Positions 932 through 6,772 are shown, counted from the first letter of the stretch. The stretch: 32,000 nucleotides of DNA from Halorhodospira halophila SL1 (GCF_000015585.1 NC_008789.1:2400001-2432000); one strand, 5' to 3'. The notes: generated from the letters alone by a model not told the origin. Translations and numbers: made by a program.

Positions 932-1012
932 TTAGAGTTACGGACGGGGGCACCAGCCACTGGGCCCCACTCCGAAGAACCCCCCAGTATAACGAGACAG
1001 GAGGTGATGCGT

Positions 1013-1483
1013 ATGACACTCATGCGTTACGACCCCTGGAGCACACTGCGCGACCTGCAGAGCGACCTGGACCGGATCTTCGCCCCGGGCTCGGCTCGCC
1101 CTGGCGCGCTGGCGCGGGCCGGCGAGGACAACGGCGAGACCGCCAGCAATTGGCTGCCGGCCGTGGACATCCGCGAGGATGAGCAGAACTACGTGGTCCA
1201 CGTCGACCTGCCCGGCGTCTCCCCCGAGGAGATCGATGTGGCCATGGACAACGGCATGCTGACCATCAAGGGTCAGCGCGAGTCGGAGGAGACCGAGAGC
1301 GGCGCCAACTGGAAGCGCCTGGAACGGGTCCGTGGCACCTTCTTCCGCCGCTTCACGCTGCCGGACAACGTGGACTCGGAGGGGATCCAGGCCCGCGCCC
1401 GCAATGGCGTCCTGGAGGTCACGGTACCCAAGCGCCAGGAAGAACCGGCCAAGCGCATCCAGGTGCAGGCGGCCGACGAGTAA
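1013..1483 (+). CDS. Hsp20/alpha-crystallin family small heat-shock protein (IbpA-like)
   Basis: Inner part of ORF 905..1483. AGGAGG at 999-1004 lies 8 nt before ATG 1013; ATG 1007 is too close to the SD. The product (MTLMRYDPWSTLRDLQSDLDRIF ... WLPAVDIREDEQNYVVHVDLPGV ... GVLEVTVPK) carries the alpha-crystallin domain signature. Confidence 0.92.
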   Translation: MTLMRYDPWSTLRDLQSDLDRIFAPGSARPGALARAGEDNGETASNWLPAVDIREDEQNYVVHVDLPGVSPEEIDVAMDNGMLTIKGQRESEETESGANWKRLERVRGTFFRRFTLPDNVDSEGIQARARNGVLEVTVPKRQEEPAKRIQVQAADE

Positions 1484-1506
1484 CCCTTCGCATCAACGAC
1501 CCACCC

Positions 1507-1531
1507 GCCGCGGCCTCGCCGCGGCTTTTTT
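1507..1531 (+). terminator. Rho-independent terminator of hsp20
   Basis: A 7-bp GC stem, gccgcgg (1507-1513) with ccgcggc (1519-1525), a 5-nt loop, then TTTTTT (1526-1531). Confidence 0.85.
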
Positions 1532-1602
1532 GTGGCTACAGGCGCCATCCGCCGGACGCGCGGGGTTGGGGTTCCCCCGCCGGCTGGCGCATACTGCCGG
1601 TT

Positions 1603-1977
1603 ATGGAGCTTCGAAGCCGGACAAGAGCGGGACGGGTGGGCCTCGGGCTGGTACTCGCCGCCGTGACGCTGGGGGCGTGCACCGGCTATGGCCACCAGCA
1701 GCGACCGGCCCCCGAACCGACCGACACCCAGCCCGACTACTCGGACCCGCGCCAGTGGCCGGGTAGCCACCAGCTCGACCCGGATGCCGGCGATCGCAGC
1801 ACCCGGGACGAAATGCGCGCGGCCGGCACCGAGATGTACAACCTGGGTCGCGATGCCGAACTCGAGGCGGGGGTCCGCGAACTCCAGCAAGGCATCCGCC
1901 AGGAACAGTCCGAGGTCCTCGGCACCTTCCCGGAGATCTACGGTCGCGGCGCCTGGCGGCGCTTCCCGACGCGCTAG
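1603..1977 (+). CDS. Hypothetical lipoprotein
   Basis: The N-terminus MELRSRTRAGRVGLGLVLAAVTLGAC has a basic n-region, a hydrophobic core and an LGAC lipobox. Third-position GC looks like coding sequence. I recognise no family. Confidence 0.6.
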   Translation: MELRSRTRAGRVGLGLVLAAVTLGACTGYGHQQRPAPEPTDTQPDYSDPRQWPGSHQLDPDAGDRSTRDEMRAAGTEMYNLGRDAELEAGVRELQQGIRQEQSEVLGTFPEIYGRGAWRRFPTR

Positions 1978-1990
1978 GGTGACGGCCTGG

Positions 1991-2437
1991 CTAGCCCTCG
2001 CGACCGTGGGGGACGACCACCACGGGGCAGGACGCGTGCTGCAGCACCTGGTGGCTCACCGAGCCGAGCAACAGGCCGGCAAAGCCGCCGTGACCGCGGC
2101 TGCCGACAACGAACAGCTCTGCATCCTGCCCGGCCTGATCGAGCAGCGTACCGACAATGCCGTGCCGCTCGGCATGGACCACCTCTTTGCGCAGGTCGAC
2201 CCCTTCGGGCACCTCGCCGATGGCACCCACCGCCCGGTCGAGGATCGCCCGCGCCTCCGCTTCCAGCTCCGAGGCAGCAGGGGCCACCAGCACACCGAGA
2301 TCCGAGTCCAGGTAACGCCGGTCGATGACGTAGATCGCCCGCACCGGGCAGCGGCGCAGCGCCGCCTCGTTGACCGCCCAGTTGAGGGCACGCTGCGCTC
2401 CTGTGGAGCCGTCCATACCCACCACAATCGAACTCAT
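1991..2437 (-). CDS. Universal stress protein (UspA family)
   Basis: Inner part of ORF 1991..2599. ATG 2437 is preceded by AAGGGGGG. The product MSSIVVGMDGSTGAQRALNWAV ... LFVVGSRGHGGFAGLLLGSVSHQVLQHASCPVVVV has the Usp ATP-binding motif G-2x-G-9x-G(S/T). Confidence 0.88.
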   Translation of the reverse strand: MSSIVVGMDGSTGAQRALNWAVNEAALRRCPVRAIYVIDRRYLDSDLGVLVAPAASELEAEARAILDRAVGAIGEVPEGVDLRKEVVHAERHGIVGTLLDQAGQDAELFVVGSRGHGGFAGLLLGSVSHQVLQHASCPVVVVPHGREG

Positions 2438-2532
2438 AAGCCCCCCTTGGGTCGTGCAGGCTGTTTTTCGACGGACCGAGTGAATTATAGTCCAGTGACC
2501 ATCGGCACAGACTACGGGGAAAGGAAGGCGAA

Positions 2533-4305
2533 ATGAATGCCATCTGGCTTGCGGTTGCCGTTGTCGCCCTCTACATCTTTGGATGGCTCTGGTACTCACG
2601 GTTCCTAGCGGAGCGGATCTACCGTCTGGACCCGAACTTCGTCACACCGGCCCACCGCTACCGGGACGGCGTCGACTTTGTCCCCACCAACAAGTGGGTC
2701 CTCTGGGGGCACCACTTCACCTCGGTCGCCGGCGCAGCGCCGATCGTCGGCCCGGCCATCGCCATGTACTGGGGCTGGGGGCCCGCCCTGGCCTGGGTGG
2801 CCCTAGGGACCGTCTTCGCCGCCGGCGTGCACGACTTCGGCGCCCTGGTGCTCTCCAACCGCCACCGCGGTCAGTCGGTGGGCACCATGGCCAACCGGAT
2901 CATTGGCCGCCGCGCCAAGCTCTTGTTCCTGTTCATCATCCTGATCCTCATCCTGATGGTGAACGCGGTCTTCGCCTGGGTGATCGCCAACCTGTTCATC
3001 AGCAACCCGGCCGCGGTCCTGCCGGTGGTCCTGCAGGTGCCGGTGGCGATCTGGATCGGCTACATGGTCCTGCGCCGCGGCGGCAGCCTGCTGGTGCCGT
3101 CGCTGATCGCCCTGGTGATCATGTACGGCACGGCCATCCTCACCACGCACTACGAGTTCCTGCAGATCGACCTGGTGCGCTGGTTCGGCGGTGAGGGCGA
3201 GACCACCGCCCTGTTTGGGCTGGAGGCCACCCCGGCCAGTTTCCTGATCTGGATCCTGGTCCTGCTGGCCTACGTCTACTTCGCCAGCACCCTGCCGGTG
3301 TGGAAGCTCCTGCAACCCCGGGACTACATCAACGCCCAGCAGCTGGTGGTCGGCCTGGGCATCCTCTACCTCGGTCTGTTCGTGATGCAGCCGGAGATCA
3401 CGGCGCCGGCCTACAACACCGAGGCCACCACCTCCTGGTTCCCGCTGCTGTTCATCACCATCGCCTGCGGCGCCATCTCCGGCTTCCACGGGCTGGTGGC
3501 CTCGGGGACCTCCTCGAAGCAGCTGGACAAGGAGACCGACGCCCGCACCGTCGGCTACCTGGGGGCCCTGGGTGAGGGAACCCTGGCGCTGATCACCATC
3601 ATCGCCGTGGCCACCCTGTTCGCCGGCACCGCCGAGTTCACGGACAGCTACTCGAGCTTCGCCGCGGCCGGCCAGGCCGGCGTCGGCAACTTCGTCGAAG
3701 GCGCCTCGCAGCTGGCGGGCGGCATCGGCATCCCGTCCGACGTGGCGGCCACCATCGTGGCGCTGATCATCGTCTGCTTCGCCGCCACCACGCTCGACTC
3801 GGCGGTCCGCCTGCTGCGCTACATCATCGGCGAGCTCGGCACCGAGTACCGCATCCCCAACCTCACCCGCCGCCACGTGGCCACCTCGCTGGCCGTGGGC
3901 CTGACCGCCTTCCTGGTGCTGGTCCCGGACGGGGGCGAAGGCCTCGGCTCCGGCGGTTACCTGCTCTGGCCGCTGTTCGGCACCTCCAACCAGCTGCTGG
4001 CCGGGATCACGCTGATGCTGATCTCGCTGTGGCTGTATCGGAAGGGGCGCAGCCCGATCCCCACCCTGATCCCAATGGTCTTCCTGCTGGCCATGACCAT
4101 CTGGGCCATGACCGAGCAGGTGGTCCTGGAGTGGTCGGGGCTGCGCGAGGCCGACGCCGAGTGGCTGCTCTTCGGTCTGGGCGCGGTAATCCTCGGCTTC
4201 GCCATCTGGATCCTGCTCGAGGCGGTGCGGCTGTTCCGCAACCGCGACGAGCTGGAGGCCCTGCGTGACCCGGCTGACGAAGAGCCGGAGCGGGAGCGGT
4301 CATGA
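2533..4305 (+). CDS. cstA: Carbon starvation protein A family transporter (CstA; peptide/pyruvate transporter family)
   Basis: 590-aa polytopic membrane protein. The N-terminus YSRFLAERIYRLDP ... VPTNKWVLWGHHFTSVAGAAPIVGPAIAMYWGWGPALAWV is the conserved CstA N-terminal signature. SD GGAAGG precedes ATG 2533. Confidence 0.92.
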   Translation: MNAIWLAVAVVALYIFGWLWYSRFLAERIYRLDPNFVTPAHRYRDGVDFVPTNKWVLWGHHFTSVAGAAPIVGPAIAMYWGWGPALAWVALGTVFAAGVHDFGALVLSNRHRGQSVGTMANRIIGRRAKLLFLFIILILILMVNAVFAWVIANLFISNPAAVLPVVLQVPVAIWIGYMVLRRGGSLLVPSLIALVIMYGTAILTTHYEFLQIDLVRWFGGEGETTALFGLEATPASFLIWILVLLAYVYFASTLPVWKLLQPRDYINAQQLVVGLGILYLGLFVMQPEITAPAYNTEATTSWFPLLFITIACGAISGFHGLVASGTSSKQLDKETDARTVGYLGALGEGTLALITIIAVATLFAGTAEFTDSYSSFAAAGQAGVGNFVEGASQLAGGIGIPSDVAATIVALIIVCFAATTLDSAVRLLRYIIGELGTEYRIPNLTRRHVATSLAVGLTAFLVLVPDGGEGLGSGGYLLWPLFGTSNQLLAGITLMLISLWLYRKGRSPIPTLIPMVFLLAMTIWAMTEQVVLEWSGLREADAEWLLFGLGAVILGFAIWILLEAVRLFRNRDELEALRDPADEEPERERS

Positions 4306-4580
4306 GCGCGGCGGACTCCTCCTGGTGGGCCTTACTGCAGCAGCTGCTGCGCGGCTACGACCAGTCGCTGCGCCTGGGCCACGATGCCGAGGTAAAACGG
4401 GAGCTACAGGAGCAGGAGGATCTGATCCTGTTGATGCTGTTCGGGGAGGCCATGGGCCTCCCCAACCCGGCCTCCTACTACACCCTGGAGCTCTATCCGG
4501 CGCTCATCGAGTCGTACCACGAGTGGCATCAGCGGATGGGCATGGACCACTCGCCGCTGGATCACATCCGGTGCTGTTAG
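4302..4580 (+). CDS. Small CstA-coupled protein with C-terminal Cys-Cys-stop (YbdD/YjiX-analogous position; function unknown)
   Basis: 92 aa. Its ATG overlaps the cstA stop (ATGA at 4302-4305). Third-position GC is high. It ends ...SPLDHIRCC-TAG. It occupies the slot that small DUF466 proteins occupy downstream of cstA paralogs in enterics. Confidence 0.65.
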   Translation: MSAADSSWWALLQQLLRGYDQSLRLGHDAEVKRELQEQEDLILLMLFGEAMGLPNPASYYTLELYPALIESYHEWHQRMGMDHSPLDHIRCC

Positions 4581-4604
4581 GCGTCGGCCCGTGGAGGCAT
4601 CGCG

Positions 4605-5543
4605 GTGATGCATGAACCGATCCTCTTCTTTTCCGGCAAGGGCGGCGTGGGCAAGACCACCACGGCAGCCGCCCACGCCTTGGCGGCCGCGGACAGCGGA
4701 CGACGGGTGCTGCTGGTATCCACCGACCCGGCCCACAACCTGGGCGACGCCTTCAGCCAACCACTCGGCGGACAGCCGACGCGGGTGGCACCGAACCTCG
4801 ATGCCATCGAGATCGACCCGGATGCGGAGTGCGCCCGCTACATCGAGCAGGTCAAGCAGAACATCCGGGCCACAGTGCGCTCGACGATGATCGAGGAGGC
4901 CGAACGCCAGATCGACATGGCCGGCCGCGCCCCGGGGGCCTACGAGGCGGCGCTGTTCGATCGCATGGTCGGAATCCTGCTGGACGAGGCCCATCCGGGC
5001 GAGGCGAAGGGGTACGATCAGGTGGTCTTCGATACGGCCCCCACCGGCCATACCATCCGACTGCTGACCCTGCCGGAGCTCATGGGGGCGTGGGTGGACG
5101 GCCTGCTCCGCCAGCGCACGGAGCACAACCGGGAGCGGTCGCAGTGGCTCGGCGACGGAGAGGTCCCGGAGGATCCGCTCTACGATCTGCTCAGTGAGCG
5201 GCGCCGACGCATCGCGGCGGTGCGCGACCTGATGCTGGATCCGGCCATGACAGCCTTCGTCTTTGTCCTCACTCCGGAGCACCTGCCGGTGGAGGAGACG
5301 CGGCGTGCGCTGGCGGACCTCGACAGCCACCAGCTTCGGGTCGGGGCGCTGGTGATCAACAAGGTGCTGCCGGAGGAGGCCGACGGTACCTTCGTGGCCC
5401 AGCGTCGCGCCGCGGAGGCGGAGCACCTAGCGGCGATCGAACGGCATTTCGCGGAACGGCGGCGCTACTACGTGCCGCTTCGCGCCGCGGACGTGCGCGA
5501 CCTGGACGACCTGCGCGCCATCGCCGGGCACCTGCGGGACTGA
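4605..5543 (+). CDS. ArsA/Get3-family P-loop ATPase (single-domain, anion-transporting-ATPase-like)
   Basis: Deviant Walker A GKGGVGKTT, STDPAHNLGDAF, and switch II DTAPTGHTIRLL. GGAGG (4593-4597) precedes GTG 4605 and ATG 4608, and either start is possible. Confidence 0.88.
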   Translation: MMHEPILFFSGKGGVGKTTTAAAHALAAADSGRRVLLVSTDPAHNLGDAFSQPLGGQPTRVAPNLDAIEIDPDAECARYIEQVKQNIRATVRSTMIEEAERQIDMAGRAPGAYEAALFDRMVGILLDEAHPGEAKGYDQVVFDTAPTGHTIRLLTLPELMGAWVDGLLRQRTEHNRERSQWLGDGEVPEDPLYDLLSERRRRIAAVRDLMLDPAMTAFVFVLTPEHLPVEETRRALADLDSHQLRVGALVINKVLPEEADGTFVAQRRAAEAEHLAAIERHFAERRRYYVPLRAADVRDLDDLRAIAGHLRD

Positions 5544-5785
5544 CCCCGGCGCGGGGGATGCCCCCGGTCCGCCGGCGTCGAACGAGCGCGCCCCTGCGGG
5601 GTCCCCTGCGCTGCTCACCGGCGCGGGGCCGCTCGCTTAACTCGCGGCGCTGGCGCGCCGCTCGGACAAAACCTCGCTGACCAGCGCGAACCGGTCAAGG
5701 TTCGCGCTGGGCCCCCGCGCCGGCTGCGCGGCTCGGCGCGCTCAATGACGCCGGCGGACCGGGGGCATCCCCCGCGCCGGGGTCA
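5541..5785. repeat. 245-bp composite palindrome (MITE/REP-like structured element or bidirectional terminator) between convergent genes
   Basis: 5541-5579 is the exact reverse complement of 5747-5785 (39/39). The interior has further complementary blocks, gagcgcgcc and cggcgcgggg, on both sides. At the apex is a perfect 12-bp hairpin: ccagcgcgaacc (5681-5692), loop ggtcaa, ggttcgcgctgg (5699-5710). Confidence 0.9.
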
Positions 5786-6772
5786 ATCCGCTGCGCCGAG
5801 ATCGAGCACCGTGGCGCCGGTGGTCGCCCGCGCCTCCAGATCCGTGTGGGCCCGGGCCGCCTTCTCCAGCGGGTAGCGCCGCCCCACCGCCGGCTCGATC
5901 ACCCCCTGCGTAAGGGCATCGTAGTAGGCCGACGCTCCGGCCAGCAGCTCGTGCCGATCGGCGATGTAGTGGAACAGCACCGGCCGGGTCAGGAACAGCG
6001 ACCCCTTCTGCGCCAGCAGCCCGGGCTCGATGGCAGGCGGAGCCCCCGAGGCATTGCCGTAACTGACCATCATCCCCAGTGGGCGCAGGCAATCCAGCGA
6101 GGCCTCGAAGGTGGCCGCCCCCACCGAGTCGTAGACCACATCCACACCGCGTCCCCCGGTGATCGCCTCGACCTTCTCGCGGAAGTCGTCTTGGGTGTAG
6201 AGGATGGGGTGGTGACAGCCGTGCTCGGCGGCCACCTGCGCCTTGTCCTCGTCGCCCACGGTGCCGATCACCGTGGCCCCGAGGTAGTCCGCCCACTGAC
6301 AGAGGATCTGCCCCACCCCGCCCGCGGCGGCGTGGATCAGCAGCGTATGCCCCCGGCGCACCGGGAAGGTACGGTGCAGCAGCAGCCACGCCGTGAGGCC
6401 GCGGAGAGTCGTGCCACCGGCCACCGCGTCCTCCACCTCGTCGGGGACCGGGATCAGGCGATCCGCCGGCAGCACGCGGGCCTCGGCGTAGGCGCCGGGT
6501 GGCGGCGTGGCATACGCCATCCGTTCCCCGGTCTGCACCCCGCGGACCCCGTCGCCGACCGCCTCGACCACACCACAGGCCTCGACCCCGATGCCGTGGG
6601 GCAGCTGGGGCAGCGGGTACAACCCGCTGCGGTGGTAGCAGTCGATGAAGTTGACCCCGCAGGCGGTCTGGCGCAACAGGACCTCACCCGGACCGGGGGC
6701 GGGCACGTCGATCTCCTCGACCTGGAGTTGCTCGGGGCCACCCGTTTGATGGATGCGGACAGCGCGGGCCAT
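5783..6772 (-). CDS. qor: NADPH:quinone oxidoreductase (zeta-crystallin/Qor family, MDR superfamily)
   Basis: 329 aa. MARAVRIHQTGGPEQLQVEEIDVPAPGPGEVLLRQTACGVNFIDCYHRSGLYP ... AAAGGVG nucleotide-binding motif. AGGAGG lies upstream of ATG 6772. Confidence 0.88.
   Translation of the reverse strand: MARAVRIHQTGGPEQLQVEEIDVPAPGPGEVLLRQTACGVNFIDCYHRSGLYPLPQLPHGIGVEACGVVEAVGDGVRGVQTGERMAYATPPPGAYAEARVLPADRLIPVPDEVEDAVAGGTTLRGLTAWLLLHRTFPVRRGHTLLIHAAAGGVGQILCQWADYLGATVIGTVGDEDKAQVAAEHGCHHPILYTQDDFREKVEAITGGRGVDVVYDSVGAATFEASLDCLRPLGMMVSYGNASGAPPAIEPGLLAQKGSLFLTRPVLFHYIADRHELLAGASAYYDALTQGVIEPAVGRRYPLEKAARAHTDLEARATTGATVLDLGAAD

Follow-up and report, generated by a model that had tools for sequence, protein, structure and literature searches.

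A cstA-cstX-arsA-homologue operon in Halorhodospira halophila SL1 and a possible adaptor role for its small Cys-Cys-ended protein

We describe three consecutive plus-strand genes of Halorhodospira halophila SL1 (2533–5543 of a 32,000-nucleotide window, GCF_000015585.1, NC_008789.1:2400001-2432000; the window is the whole stretch of DNA analysed, and positions are counted from its first letter) that encode a short-form CstA-family carrier, a 92-residue protein ending in Cys-Cys and a single-domain ATPase of the Get3/ArsA class. The trio almost certainly represents the cstA-cstX-arsA-homologue operon type of Castillo & Saier (2010, Int J Microbiol 2010:187373, PMC2963123). Because comparative genomics had already revealed this operon type in 2010, and the small family has already been named, the finding is a known one, and the value of the locus lies in providing a clean experimental system rather than a discovery. 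What remains of interest is the mechanism of the module, the variants of its small protein that appear to carry selenocysteine, and the predicted soluble nature of that protein, here referred to as CstX.

The carrier gene, cstA (2533..4305), encodes 590 residues, and its stop codon overlaps the start codon of cstX (4302..4580) within the tetranucleotide ATGA (4302..4305), an arrangement that indicates translational coupling of the two genes and that recurs as an identical four-nucleotide overlap in three further loci of our census (L002, L003 and L044). This overlap had been pointed out in a preliminary description made from the sequence of the window, and direct reading confirmed it, together with the reported Cys-Cys end of the 92-residue frame (...SPLDHIRCC), in which R90-C91-C92-stop is written CGG TGC TGT TAG (4569..4580, with TGC TGT TAG at 4572-4580). 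The ATPase gene (4605..5543) likewise starts where it had been placed, 24 nucleotides past the cstX stop and behind a GGAGG ribosome-binding site (4593..4597), which lies 7 nucleotides 5' of a GTG codon at 4605 (giving 312 residues) and 10 nucleotides 5' of an ATG codon at 4608 (giving 311 residues), and it carries all three of the motifs noted at that stage, GKGGVGKTT, STDPAHNL and DTAPTGHT. Searches of the whole genome, a single contig of 2,678,452 bases, returned one cstX, one CstA and one full-length ArsA-family (PF02374) ATPase. The Halorhodospira version is thus a minimal test case, consisting of three single-copy genes that include the only CstA and the only full-length ArsA-family ATPase of the genome.

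Assignment to the operon type rests on agreement with the 2010 survey, in which 26 clusters of cstA with arsA homologues were recorded, 24 of them containing an "auxiliary" cstX of about 90 residues, and in which the clustered ATPases were single-domain proteins of about 300-330 residues that lacked the three ArsA cysteines, with no arsR in the operons (PMC2963123). The H. halophila SL1 ATPase is itself tabulated there as Hha1 (311 residues, cluster 17), and all SEED-covered members of cluster 17 lie in cstA/cstX clusters (PMC2963123). Consistent with that description, the window holds a cstA, a cstX of about 90 residues and a single-domain ArsA homologue in the range of 300-330 residues, all on one strand. 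Compared with the cstA-cstX-(cstY)-arsA operons of the survey, the same three families occur here in the same order, with a single-domain ATPase of about 310 residues, and none of arsR, arsB, acr3 or arsD is present in the cluster, matching the absence of ars genes from the operon type. The proposal made in 2010 was that the ATPase energises CstA, with CstX acting as the coupler (PMC2963123).

The product of cstX matched NF041419, "cory-CC-star", over profile positions 2-80 of 80 (117.1 bits against a cut-off of 80, E=2.5e-34), and relatives of the protein carry precomputed annotations of PF25952 (DUF7990); a Pfam scan of the 92-residue protein itself returned no family at E<=0.1. Its closest named relative is from Halorhodospira. 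A named family of Cys-Cys-stop proteins of roughly 95 residues, as mentioned in the preliminary description, therefore does exist as NF041419, and the protein agrees with it in score, in length (about 90-95 residues) and in its Cys-Cys-stop ending, without structural difference. The family name points to Corynebacterium; we found no mention of "cory-CC-star" in the literature searched, and the family spans about eight phyla. The frame has the coding-like third-position composition attributed to it (GC fractions of 0.66, 0.37 and 0.89 by codon position), and comparison of codons 48-92 with the two closest orthologues gave 11 synonymous to 1 nonsynonymous and 12 to 4 changes, respectively, indicating purifying selection.

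To place the locus in context, a pattern scan of one genome per species yielded 586 stretches encoding relatives, of which the best 80, from about eight phyla, were fetched and relatives of the three window proteins located in them by tblastn. These 80 loci came from Gamma-, Beta- and Alphaproteobacteria, Bacillales, Opitutales, Balneolales, Vicinamibacteria, Gemmatimonadota and a cyanobacterium. An ArsA-like gene followed cstX on the same strand in every locus with downstream sequence (78/78), starting within about 500 nucleotides in 76 of them. Of the 76 loci whose sequence was complete on either side, 66 had cstA, cstX and the arsA-like gene contiguous in this order. The Cys-Cys terminus was present in all 77 small open reading frames that reached a stop codon, one of them ending in CCC, and in 114 of the 178 family proteins retrieved, the remainder being mostly fragments or members of a distant branch without it. 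Endings of CSCCC, CGCC or CCC in place of a plain Cys-Cys were seen in proteins P0080, P0109 and P0093 and in locus L015. The conservation of the frame and its terminus at orthologous loci, and the co-occurrence of the arsA-like gene with cstA and cstX beyond chance, both bear out the proposal of a functional trio in so far as the three genes form a conserved module, and chance adjacency is excluded by these counts. A spurious small frame was likewise rejected, given a hidden Markov model match above the curated cut-off, 201 cluster representatives at E<=1e-3, the 586 genome stretches, purifying selection and the conserved gene order. The notion that the frame is not a gene, or lies beside its neighbours fortuitously, has nothing but small size in its favour; refuted by these conservation data, it retains a practically negligible probability.

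The family is rare, being found in 2-3 of 151 genomes when one genome per family of the class was searched, and the module was kept in nine of the ten genomes of the genus, the tenth being just 77 % complete. Seven loci (L050, L052, L059, L061, L068, L074 and L075), from Pseudohongiella, other Pseudomonadales and a Rhodoferax genome, lacked an adjacent cstA and retained the cstX-arsA pair, and a short-form CstA was encoded elsewhere in the genome in all seven cases. The 2010 paper states that no cluster has CstX but lacks CstA (PMC2963123), and these seven genomes contradict it, carrying cstX-arsA unlinked from a CstA located elsewhere. Since cstX and arsA stay paired when cstA is unlinked, the link between CstX and the ATPase is the tightest of the module. 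In two of these loci, L050 (4196-8235) and L075 (2686-6118), ratA (SRPBCC) and rnfH lie 5' of cstX-arsA, and an SNF-family transporter, also of the LeuT-fold type, was observed further upstream of ratA-rnfH. Two cstA paralogues around one cstX-arsA pair were observed in several Vicinamibacteria, a Natronospirillum and a Natribacillus locus, the second cstA following arsA in L038, L040, L041, L046, L058 and L076 and lying between cstX and arsA in L021. One metagenomic protein (P0033, 461 residues) joins CstA residues ~1-306 to a complete CstX domain ending in Cys-Cys; it is probably a deletion or assembly artefact, and could be a natural fusion.

The third gene product passed TIGR00345, the Get3/TRC40/ArsA subfamily model (270 bits against a cut-off of 135), and matched PF02374 at E=1.2e-74; its nearest solved relative was the archaeal Get3-type structure 3zq6 (E=2.7e-58). 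Its deviant Walker A motif GKGGVGKTT (residues 11-19, 4635..4661), switch I STDPAH (residues 39-44, 4719..4736) and switch II DTAPTGHT (residues 143-150, 5031..5054) are maintained across the 76 linked ATPases, with Walker A residues G11, K12, G13, G14, V15, G16, K17 and T19, the switch I motif, and switch II residues D143, T144, A145, P146, G148, H149 and T150 conserved in at least 95 %. Given this conservation of the catalytic motifs, the ATPase is probably a hydrolysis-competent, homodimer-type enzyme whose activity depends on dimerisation. It shares with Get3/TRC40 proteins (3zq6, 3ug6) the fold family and the homodimer-type deviant Walker A, and differs from them in having no CXXC zinc motif, the archaeal 'CefC' and 'CdfC' aligning to 'GtfV', and in offering no identifiable tail-anchored client or membrane receptor. 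Its helical subdomain is also charged and poor in methionine by sequence counts, with medians of 2+2 Met in two segments compared to 11 in 3zq6 and 11 in 3ug6, and with a hydrophobic fraction of 0.33-0.38 compared to 0.37-0.44 in archaeal Get3, a composition that speaks weakly against a Get3-type client groove. BagA and BagB of Mycobacterium tuberculosis (Rv3679/Rv3680) are likewise bacterial Get3-like ATPases, in which only the N-terminal P-loop half matches the ATPase here (PDB 6bs3, E=4e-12), and membership of either family was rejected at 82 and 57 bits against cut-offs of 400 and 521.

The linked ATPases are poor in cysteine: no conserved Cys column was found among the 76, 22 of which had no cysteine at all, and alignment to 1f48 placed no cysteine opposite C113 or C172, which together with C422 are the metalloid-binding cysteines of E. 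coli ArsA. The ArsA equivalog TIGR04291 was rejected (180 bits against 650), the protein being a single 312-residue domain that covers profile positions 5-285 of 565, without an A1-A2 arrangement. The ArsD-ArsA-ArsB pump, in which ArsA turns the secondary carrier ArsB into an ATP-driven pump, resembles the trio in its parts: alongside the carrier and an ATPase of the ArsA family there is a small protein bearing vicinal cysteines. Unlike that pump, the trio has a single-domain ATPase without ligands of the C113/C172 type, a CstA carrier in place of ArsB or Acr3, no ars regulators, and a helical small protein for which the Pfam scan gave no ArsD-family match (PF06953). An ArsA/ArsD-type arsenic system was accordingly discarded, since the ATPase has one domain and none of the metalloid-binding cysteines, and ars genes are absent.

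The carrier matched PF02554 (E=1.9e-141) in two stretches, positions 1-358 and 405-560, a split that indicates the loss of about 50 residues, as is typical of linked short-form proteins. Linked short-form CstA proteins have about 550-600 residues, compared to about 700 in long-form carriers, and the E. coli CstA equivalog NF011590 was correspondingly not reached (235 bits against a cut-off of 1188; 590 compared to about 700 residues). Around 16 or more hydrophobic segments were counted, one of which (303-324) includes Cys312, encoded at 3466..3468 within the motif TIACGAISGFH; it is the sole invariant cysteine of the linked clade, being Cys in all 66 linked CstA proteins. The characterised substrates of the CstA family are pyruvate and peptides, and the E. 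coli members import pyruvate. The family is predicted to adopt the LeuT fold; sequence search identified no solved structure for the CstA family or for CstX.

CstX is acidic and, by prediction, soluble: it would form a helical hairpin followed by an extended tail (HxWH…RCC), and is not a membrane protein. Alignment and hydropathy were assessed over 64 members (alignment A2), and an AlphaFold2 model built with this 64-sequence alignment (mean predicted local distance difference test score, pLDDT, 86.8) comprised a 45-residue helix (3-47), a loop and another helix (58-78), with residues 79-92 as an extended tail. Kyte-Doolittle averages over 19-residue windows peaked at 1.08 in the Halorhodospira protein and at no more than 1.45 across the 64 members, none reaching 1.6, and the hydrophobic stretch is interrupted by the G-L-P-N-P turn (residues 52-56, 4455..4469), which coincides with the helix break between the two helices of the model. 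The 2010 paper describes CstX as having a single transmembrane segment (PMC2963123), a label that appears to be wrong because hydropathy across the 64 members, like the AlphaFold2 model, points to a soluble protein. The label should be dropped, which corrects the description without excluding the trio from the operon type. A Foldseek comparison of the CstX model with the PDB gave no match.

Invariant residues among the 64 sequences (G52, N55, P56, T61, E63, P66, H73, W75, H76, R78, G80, M81, S84, P85, C91 and C92) are concentrated in the second half of CstX, with P54 conserved in at least 90 %. The two histidines belong to the motif H73-E-W75-H76 at the end of helix 2 (4518..4529), and among 107 cluster representatives ending in Cys-Cys, H73 was kept in 99 and H76 in 98, compared to mostly E, K or P at these positions in genuine relatives without the Cys-Cys ending. 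The His pair and the Cys-Cys ending thus co-vary among the sequences compared, and these residues may reasonably be inferred to form a His2-Cys2 site that binds metal or is redox-active. The passages of the 2010 paper that were searched contain no mention of the cysteines or the C-terminus of CstX (PMC2963123).

A further indication of the importance of the terminal pair came from metagenomic relatives. Five metagenomic DUF7990 genes end in ...R-TGA-TG[CT]-TGA, with GFR before the TGA, instead of ...R-TGY-TGY-stop; four were obtained by scanning metagenomes for the C-terminal pattern of the family followed by TGA-TGY-stop (L094:1073-1081, L095:1256-1264, L096:7066-7074 and, on the minus strand, L097 with its match at 315-371), and one by another search (L082:481-486). 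A cstA relative lies upstream in L094 to L097, and an ArsA-like relative downstream in L094, L096 and L097. In four of the five loci, a G/C stem of 8-9 base pairs with an invariant GGC loop starts 12-15 nucleotides past the first base of the TGA, and in L095 four positions of this stem are changed on both sides in a compensatory manner (CCUCCCCC/GGGGGAGG compared to GGGGCCCC/GGGGCCCC). As a control, a perfect stem of at least 7 base pairs was found in the same place in 4 of 77 loci of the Cys-Cys type, and in three of these four it was followed by runs of T, resembling a terminator. An Rfam scan of the variant loci for a family of selenocysteine insertion sequences (SECIS) returned no match, so the evidence for a SECIS-like hairpin comes from our own comparison of the loci. 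These genes probably encode a selenocysteine-cysteine-COOH form of DUF7990, parallel to the Cys-selenocysteine form of DUF466, and we found no description of such variants in the literature searched. This apparent form argues that the terminal pair takes part in redox chemistry or metal binding and is more than a passive anchor.

The DUF466 proteins YbdD and YjiX provide a parallel to CstX. The preliminary description gave them a Cys-Cys-type C-terminus, and this proved accurate: E. coli YbdD ends ...GGARCC in the K-12 record, and YbdD and YjiX end in Arg-Cys-Cys-COOH beside CstA and BtsT, with a Campylobacter/Helicobacter relative ending in Lys-Cys-selenocysteine (Haft 2022 preprint). In E. 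coli, ybdD was required for CstA-dependent pyruvate uptake (Hwang et al. 2018). Like these proteins, CstX is small, predicted to be cytoplasmic and encoded just downstream of a CstA-family carrier, with an invariant [R/K]-C-C-COOH ending, and the two families also share a pair of invariant histidines (two invariant His plus Cys-Cys in DUF466), a G-x-P-[DN] turn after the N-terminal helix, and a selenocysteine variant at the terminal pair. They differ in size (65 compared to 92 residues), in fold (three short helices compared to a long hairpin), in the carriers they accompany (long-form of about 700 residues for DUF466, short-form of about 550-600 residues for CstX) and in the ArsA-like ATPase, which accompanies CstX and not DUF466. 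The impression that the N-terminal part of the 92-residue protein is not YbdD-like was upheld, since the protein had no Pfam match, PF04328 (DUF466) was matched nowhere in the genome, and hhalign gave DUF7990 and DUF466 a probability of 3.9 % (P=0.011), aligning the MG[LI]P[ND] turn and the RCC ends.

Gene neighbourhoods separate the two halves of CstX. In E. coli, ybdD starts about 180 nucleotides past the cstA stop, and no ArsA-like gene was found in the 5-kilobase cstA-ybdD region. Both systems occur in one Rhodoferax genome, in which a long CstA (731-residue open frame, ~1477-3180 on the minus strand of L083) is followed by a YbdD homologue (965-1162, minus strand) with no ArsA-like gene around the pair, and separately a short CstA (584-residue open frame, L090) is unlinked from its cstX-arsA pair (L075). 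Conversely, in the two 'QYHF' DUF7990 relatives without Cys-Cys that were looked up, the small gene runs into the start of an ArsA-like gene, and for one of the two the 3 kilobases upstream contain no cstA. CstA is the sole partner common to both Cys-Cys-ended families in these comparisons. Because the RCC ending of YbdD adjoins CstA without a nearby ATPase, and the linked ATPases have no conserved cysteine, the HxWH…RCC tail of CstX would face CstA; because DUF7990 relatives without Cys-Cys still adjoin ArsA-like ATPases, the helical body would face the ATPase. The same observations weaken the earlier suggestion that the C-terminal dithiol serves the ATPase as a ligand or handle: this ATPase clade has neither a conserved cysteine nor the ArsA C113/C172 or Get3 CXXC residues, DUF466 keeps the Cys-Cys without such an ATPase, and relatives lacking Cys-Cys keep the ATPase. 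It is the part of the first reading with the least support. A distant DUF7990 relative without the Cys-Cys ending (P0165) was observed directly 3' of a FeoB-type (Gate/FeoB_C) gene, not cstA (L101:1-1444, L102:3-957), and in L101 it is not followed by an ArsA-like gene; other transporters, too, may be accompanied by the helical body.

We tentatively favour a mechanism in which CstX is a two-part adaptor through which the ATPase is coupled to CstA, an account that we consider possible at slightly short of an even chance. Short-form CstA would depend on CstX as a cytoplasmic accessory, with the tail of CstX (H-x-W-H ... S-P ... R-C-C-COOH) acting on the carrier from the cytoplasmic side in parallel with the inferred action of the YbdD tail on E. 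coli CstA. The long helical hairpin, absent from YbdD, would recruit the dimeric ATPase, which would in turn couple ATP binding and hydrolysis to carrier activity, energising or gating CstA as ArsA does for ArsB. A bolder version, which we regard as unlikely, holds that a LeuT-fold-type carrier is made ATP-gated or ATP-driven via CstX, that the dithiol (a selenol-thiol in some lineages) joins the two histidines in a centre, metal-binding or redox-active, where the carrier opens to the cytoplasm, and that YbdD/YjiX would be the minimal, ATPase-free version.

Several points weigh against the adaptor mechanism. SIMIBI ATPases such as Get3, MinD, ParA and HypB are usually switches or chaperones and not transport motors, and we know of no LeuT-fold carrier that is ATPase-driven. 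Which protein binds which, the chemistry of the Cys-Cys/His site and the effect of ATP hydrolysis are deduced, and co-transcription of the trio is likewise drawn only from the gene overlaps. Some members ending in Cys-Cys lack the His pair. Common ancestry of DUF7990 and DUF466 is unproven, the profile comparison giving it no statistical support, so that the shared RCC ending could have arisen by convergence for another reason; moreover, the AlphaFold2 model of a YbdD-type protein, comprising a helix, a G-x-P-D turn, two short helices and a flexible tail, is of low confidence (pLDDT 69). Finally, the E. coli ybdD phenotype may be indirect, according to its authors (Hwang et al. 2018).

Three further explanations of the module were weighed against the same evidence. 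The Get3-like ATPase, with CstX as an adaptor docking in the manner of Get1 or Get4, could instead target, insert, assemble or protect CstA or another membrane client. The nearest solved relatives of the ATPase are archaeal Get3-type proteins and the Get3/TRC40 family, TIGR00345 was passed, and the predicted helical hairpin of CstX recalls the coiled-coil of Get1, which wedges into Get3; the ability of the cstX-arsA pair to exist unlinked from cstA also fits such a role. Nevertheless, we consider this rather unlikely, as the CXXC zinc clasp of Get3 is replaced by G and V, the helical subdomain has the charged, Met-poor composition given above, the operon contains no tail-anchored or small hydrophobic client and CstX is not hydrophobic. 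A dedicated chaperone for a single polytopic carrier would also be unusual, and the invariant Cys-Cys tail would be left without a role.

That tail is central to the two remaining explanations. Following the logic of ArsD, ArsA and ArsB, the dithiol and two histidines of CstX could bind a soft metal, metalloid or sulfur/selenium species and pass it to or from CstA under control of the ATPase. The vicinal cysteines of ArsD feed ArsA, Hg(II) is carried by the C-terminal Cys-Cys of MerA, and metallochaperones are the partners of many SIMIBI NTPases; the invariant Cys-Cys, the two invariant histidines, the apparent selenocysteine-cysteine relatives with their SECIS-like hairpin and the known Cys-selenocysteine variant of DUF466 are all in keeping with a thiophilic cargo. 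A hand-off of this kind is nonetheless improbable, given an ATPase without conserved cysteines or ArsA metalloid ligands, the pyruvate and peptide substrates of characterised CstA-family carriers, the lack of a PF06953 match, and the finding that no ars, mer or metal-regulator gene adjoins the trio in the window or was found in the operons of the 2010 survey. Alternatively, CstX could be a thiol switch, alternating between vicinal disulfide and dithiol, through which the cellular redox state sets whether CstA is active, with the ATPase separate and merely co-regulated. Vicinal Cys-Cys or selenocysteine-cysteine pairs at a flexible C-terminus are typical of redox-active tails, such as the GCUG tail of thioredoxin reductase, and both the selenocysteine-cysteine variants and the predicted extended tail of CstX agree with this. 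Co-regulation alone, however, is not enough to explain why cstX-arsA adjacency is stricter than that of cstX and cstA (78/78, and kept with cstA elsewhere), nor why relatives lacking Cys-Cys are still paired with the ATPase, and we consider a stand-alone redox switch very doubtful.

The operon bears on three wider matters: the role of small Cys-Cys-ended partners of CstA-family carriers, the role of bacterial Get3/ArsA homologues that take part in neither arsenic pumping nor a GET pathway, and whether a LeuT-fold carrier can couple to an ATPase. The top-scoring relatives were overwhelmingly soda-lake or saline isolates or metagenome-assembled genomes (Kulunda sediments, Alteribacillus, Salibacterium, Idiomarina, Alkalimonas and Natronospirillum). 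This saline bias may be no more than a result of ranking relatives against a query from a haloalkaliphile, but it would equally be in keeping with carriers that need coupling to ATP at a low proton motive force.

The trio is flanked by a divergent universal-stress-like gene, named from sequence motifs and not from a hidden Markov model, and by a convergent quinone oxidoreductase gene. The universal-stress-like gene was rejected as a fourth member of the module, since its conservation is confined to close relatives and it is adjacent in only 3 of the 80 loci (L002, L003 and L065), with one additional weak, distant match. Between 2300 and 5900, no sigma-70-like site was detected, nor any canonical T-run terminator 3' of the ATPase gene on the plus strand, scans that are uninformative at a genome GC content of 69 %. 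Two inverted-repeat arms of 43 nucleotides (5537-5579 and 5747-5789; 98 % complementary, with 167 nucleotides between them) extend across the stop codons of two genes, the one for the ATPase and the convergent one for the quinone oxidoreductase. This repeat is likely to mark the 3' boundary of the operon, and may be a bidirectional terminator or a repeat element.

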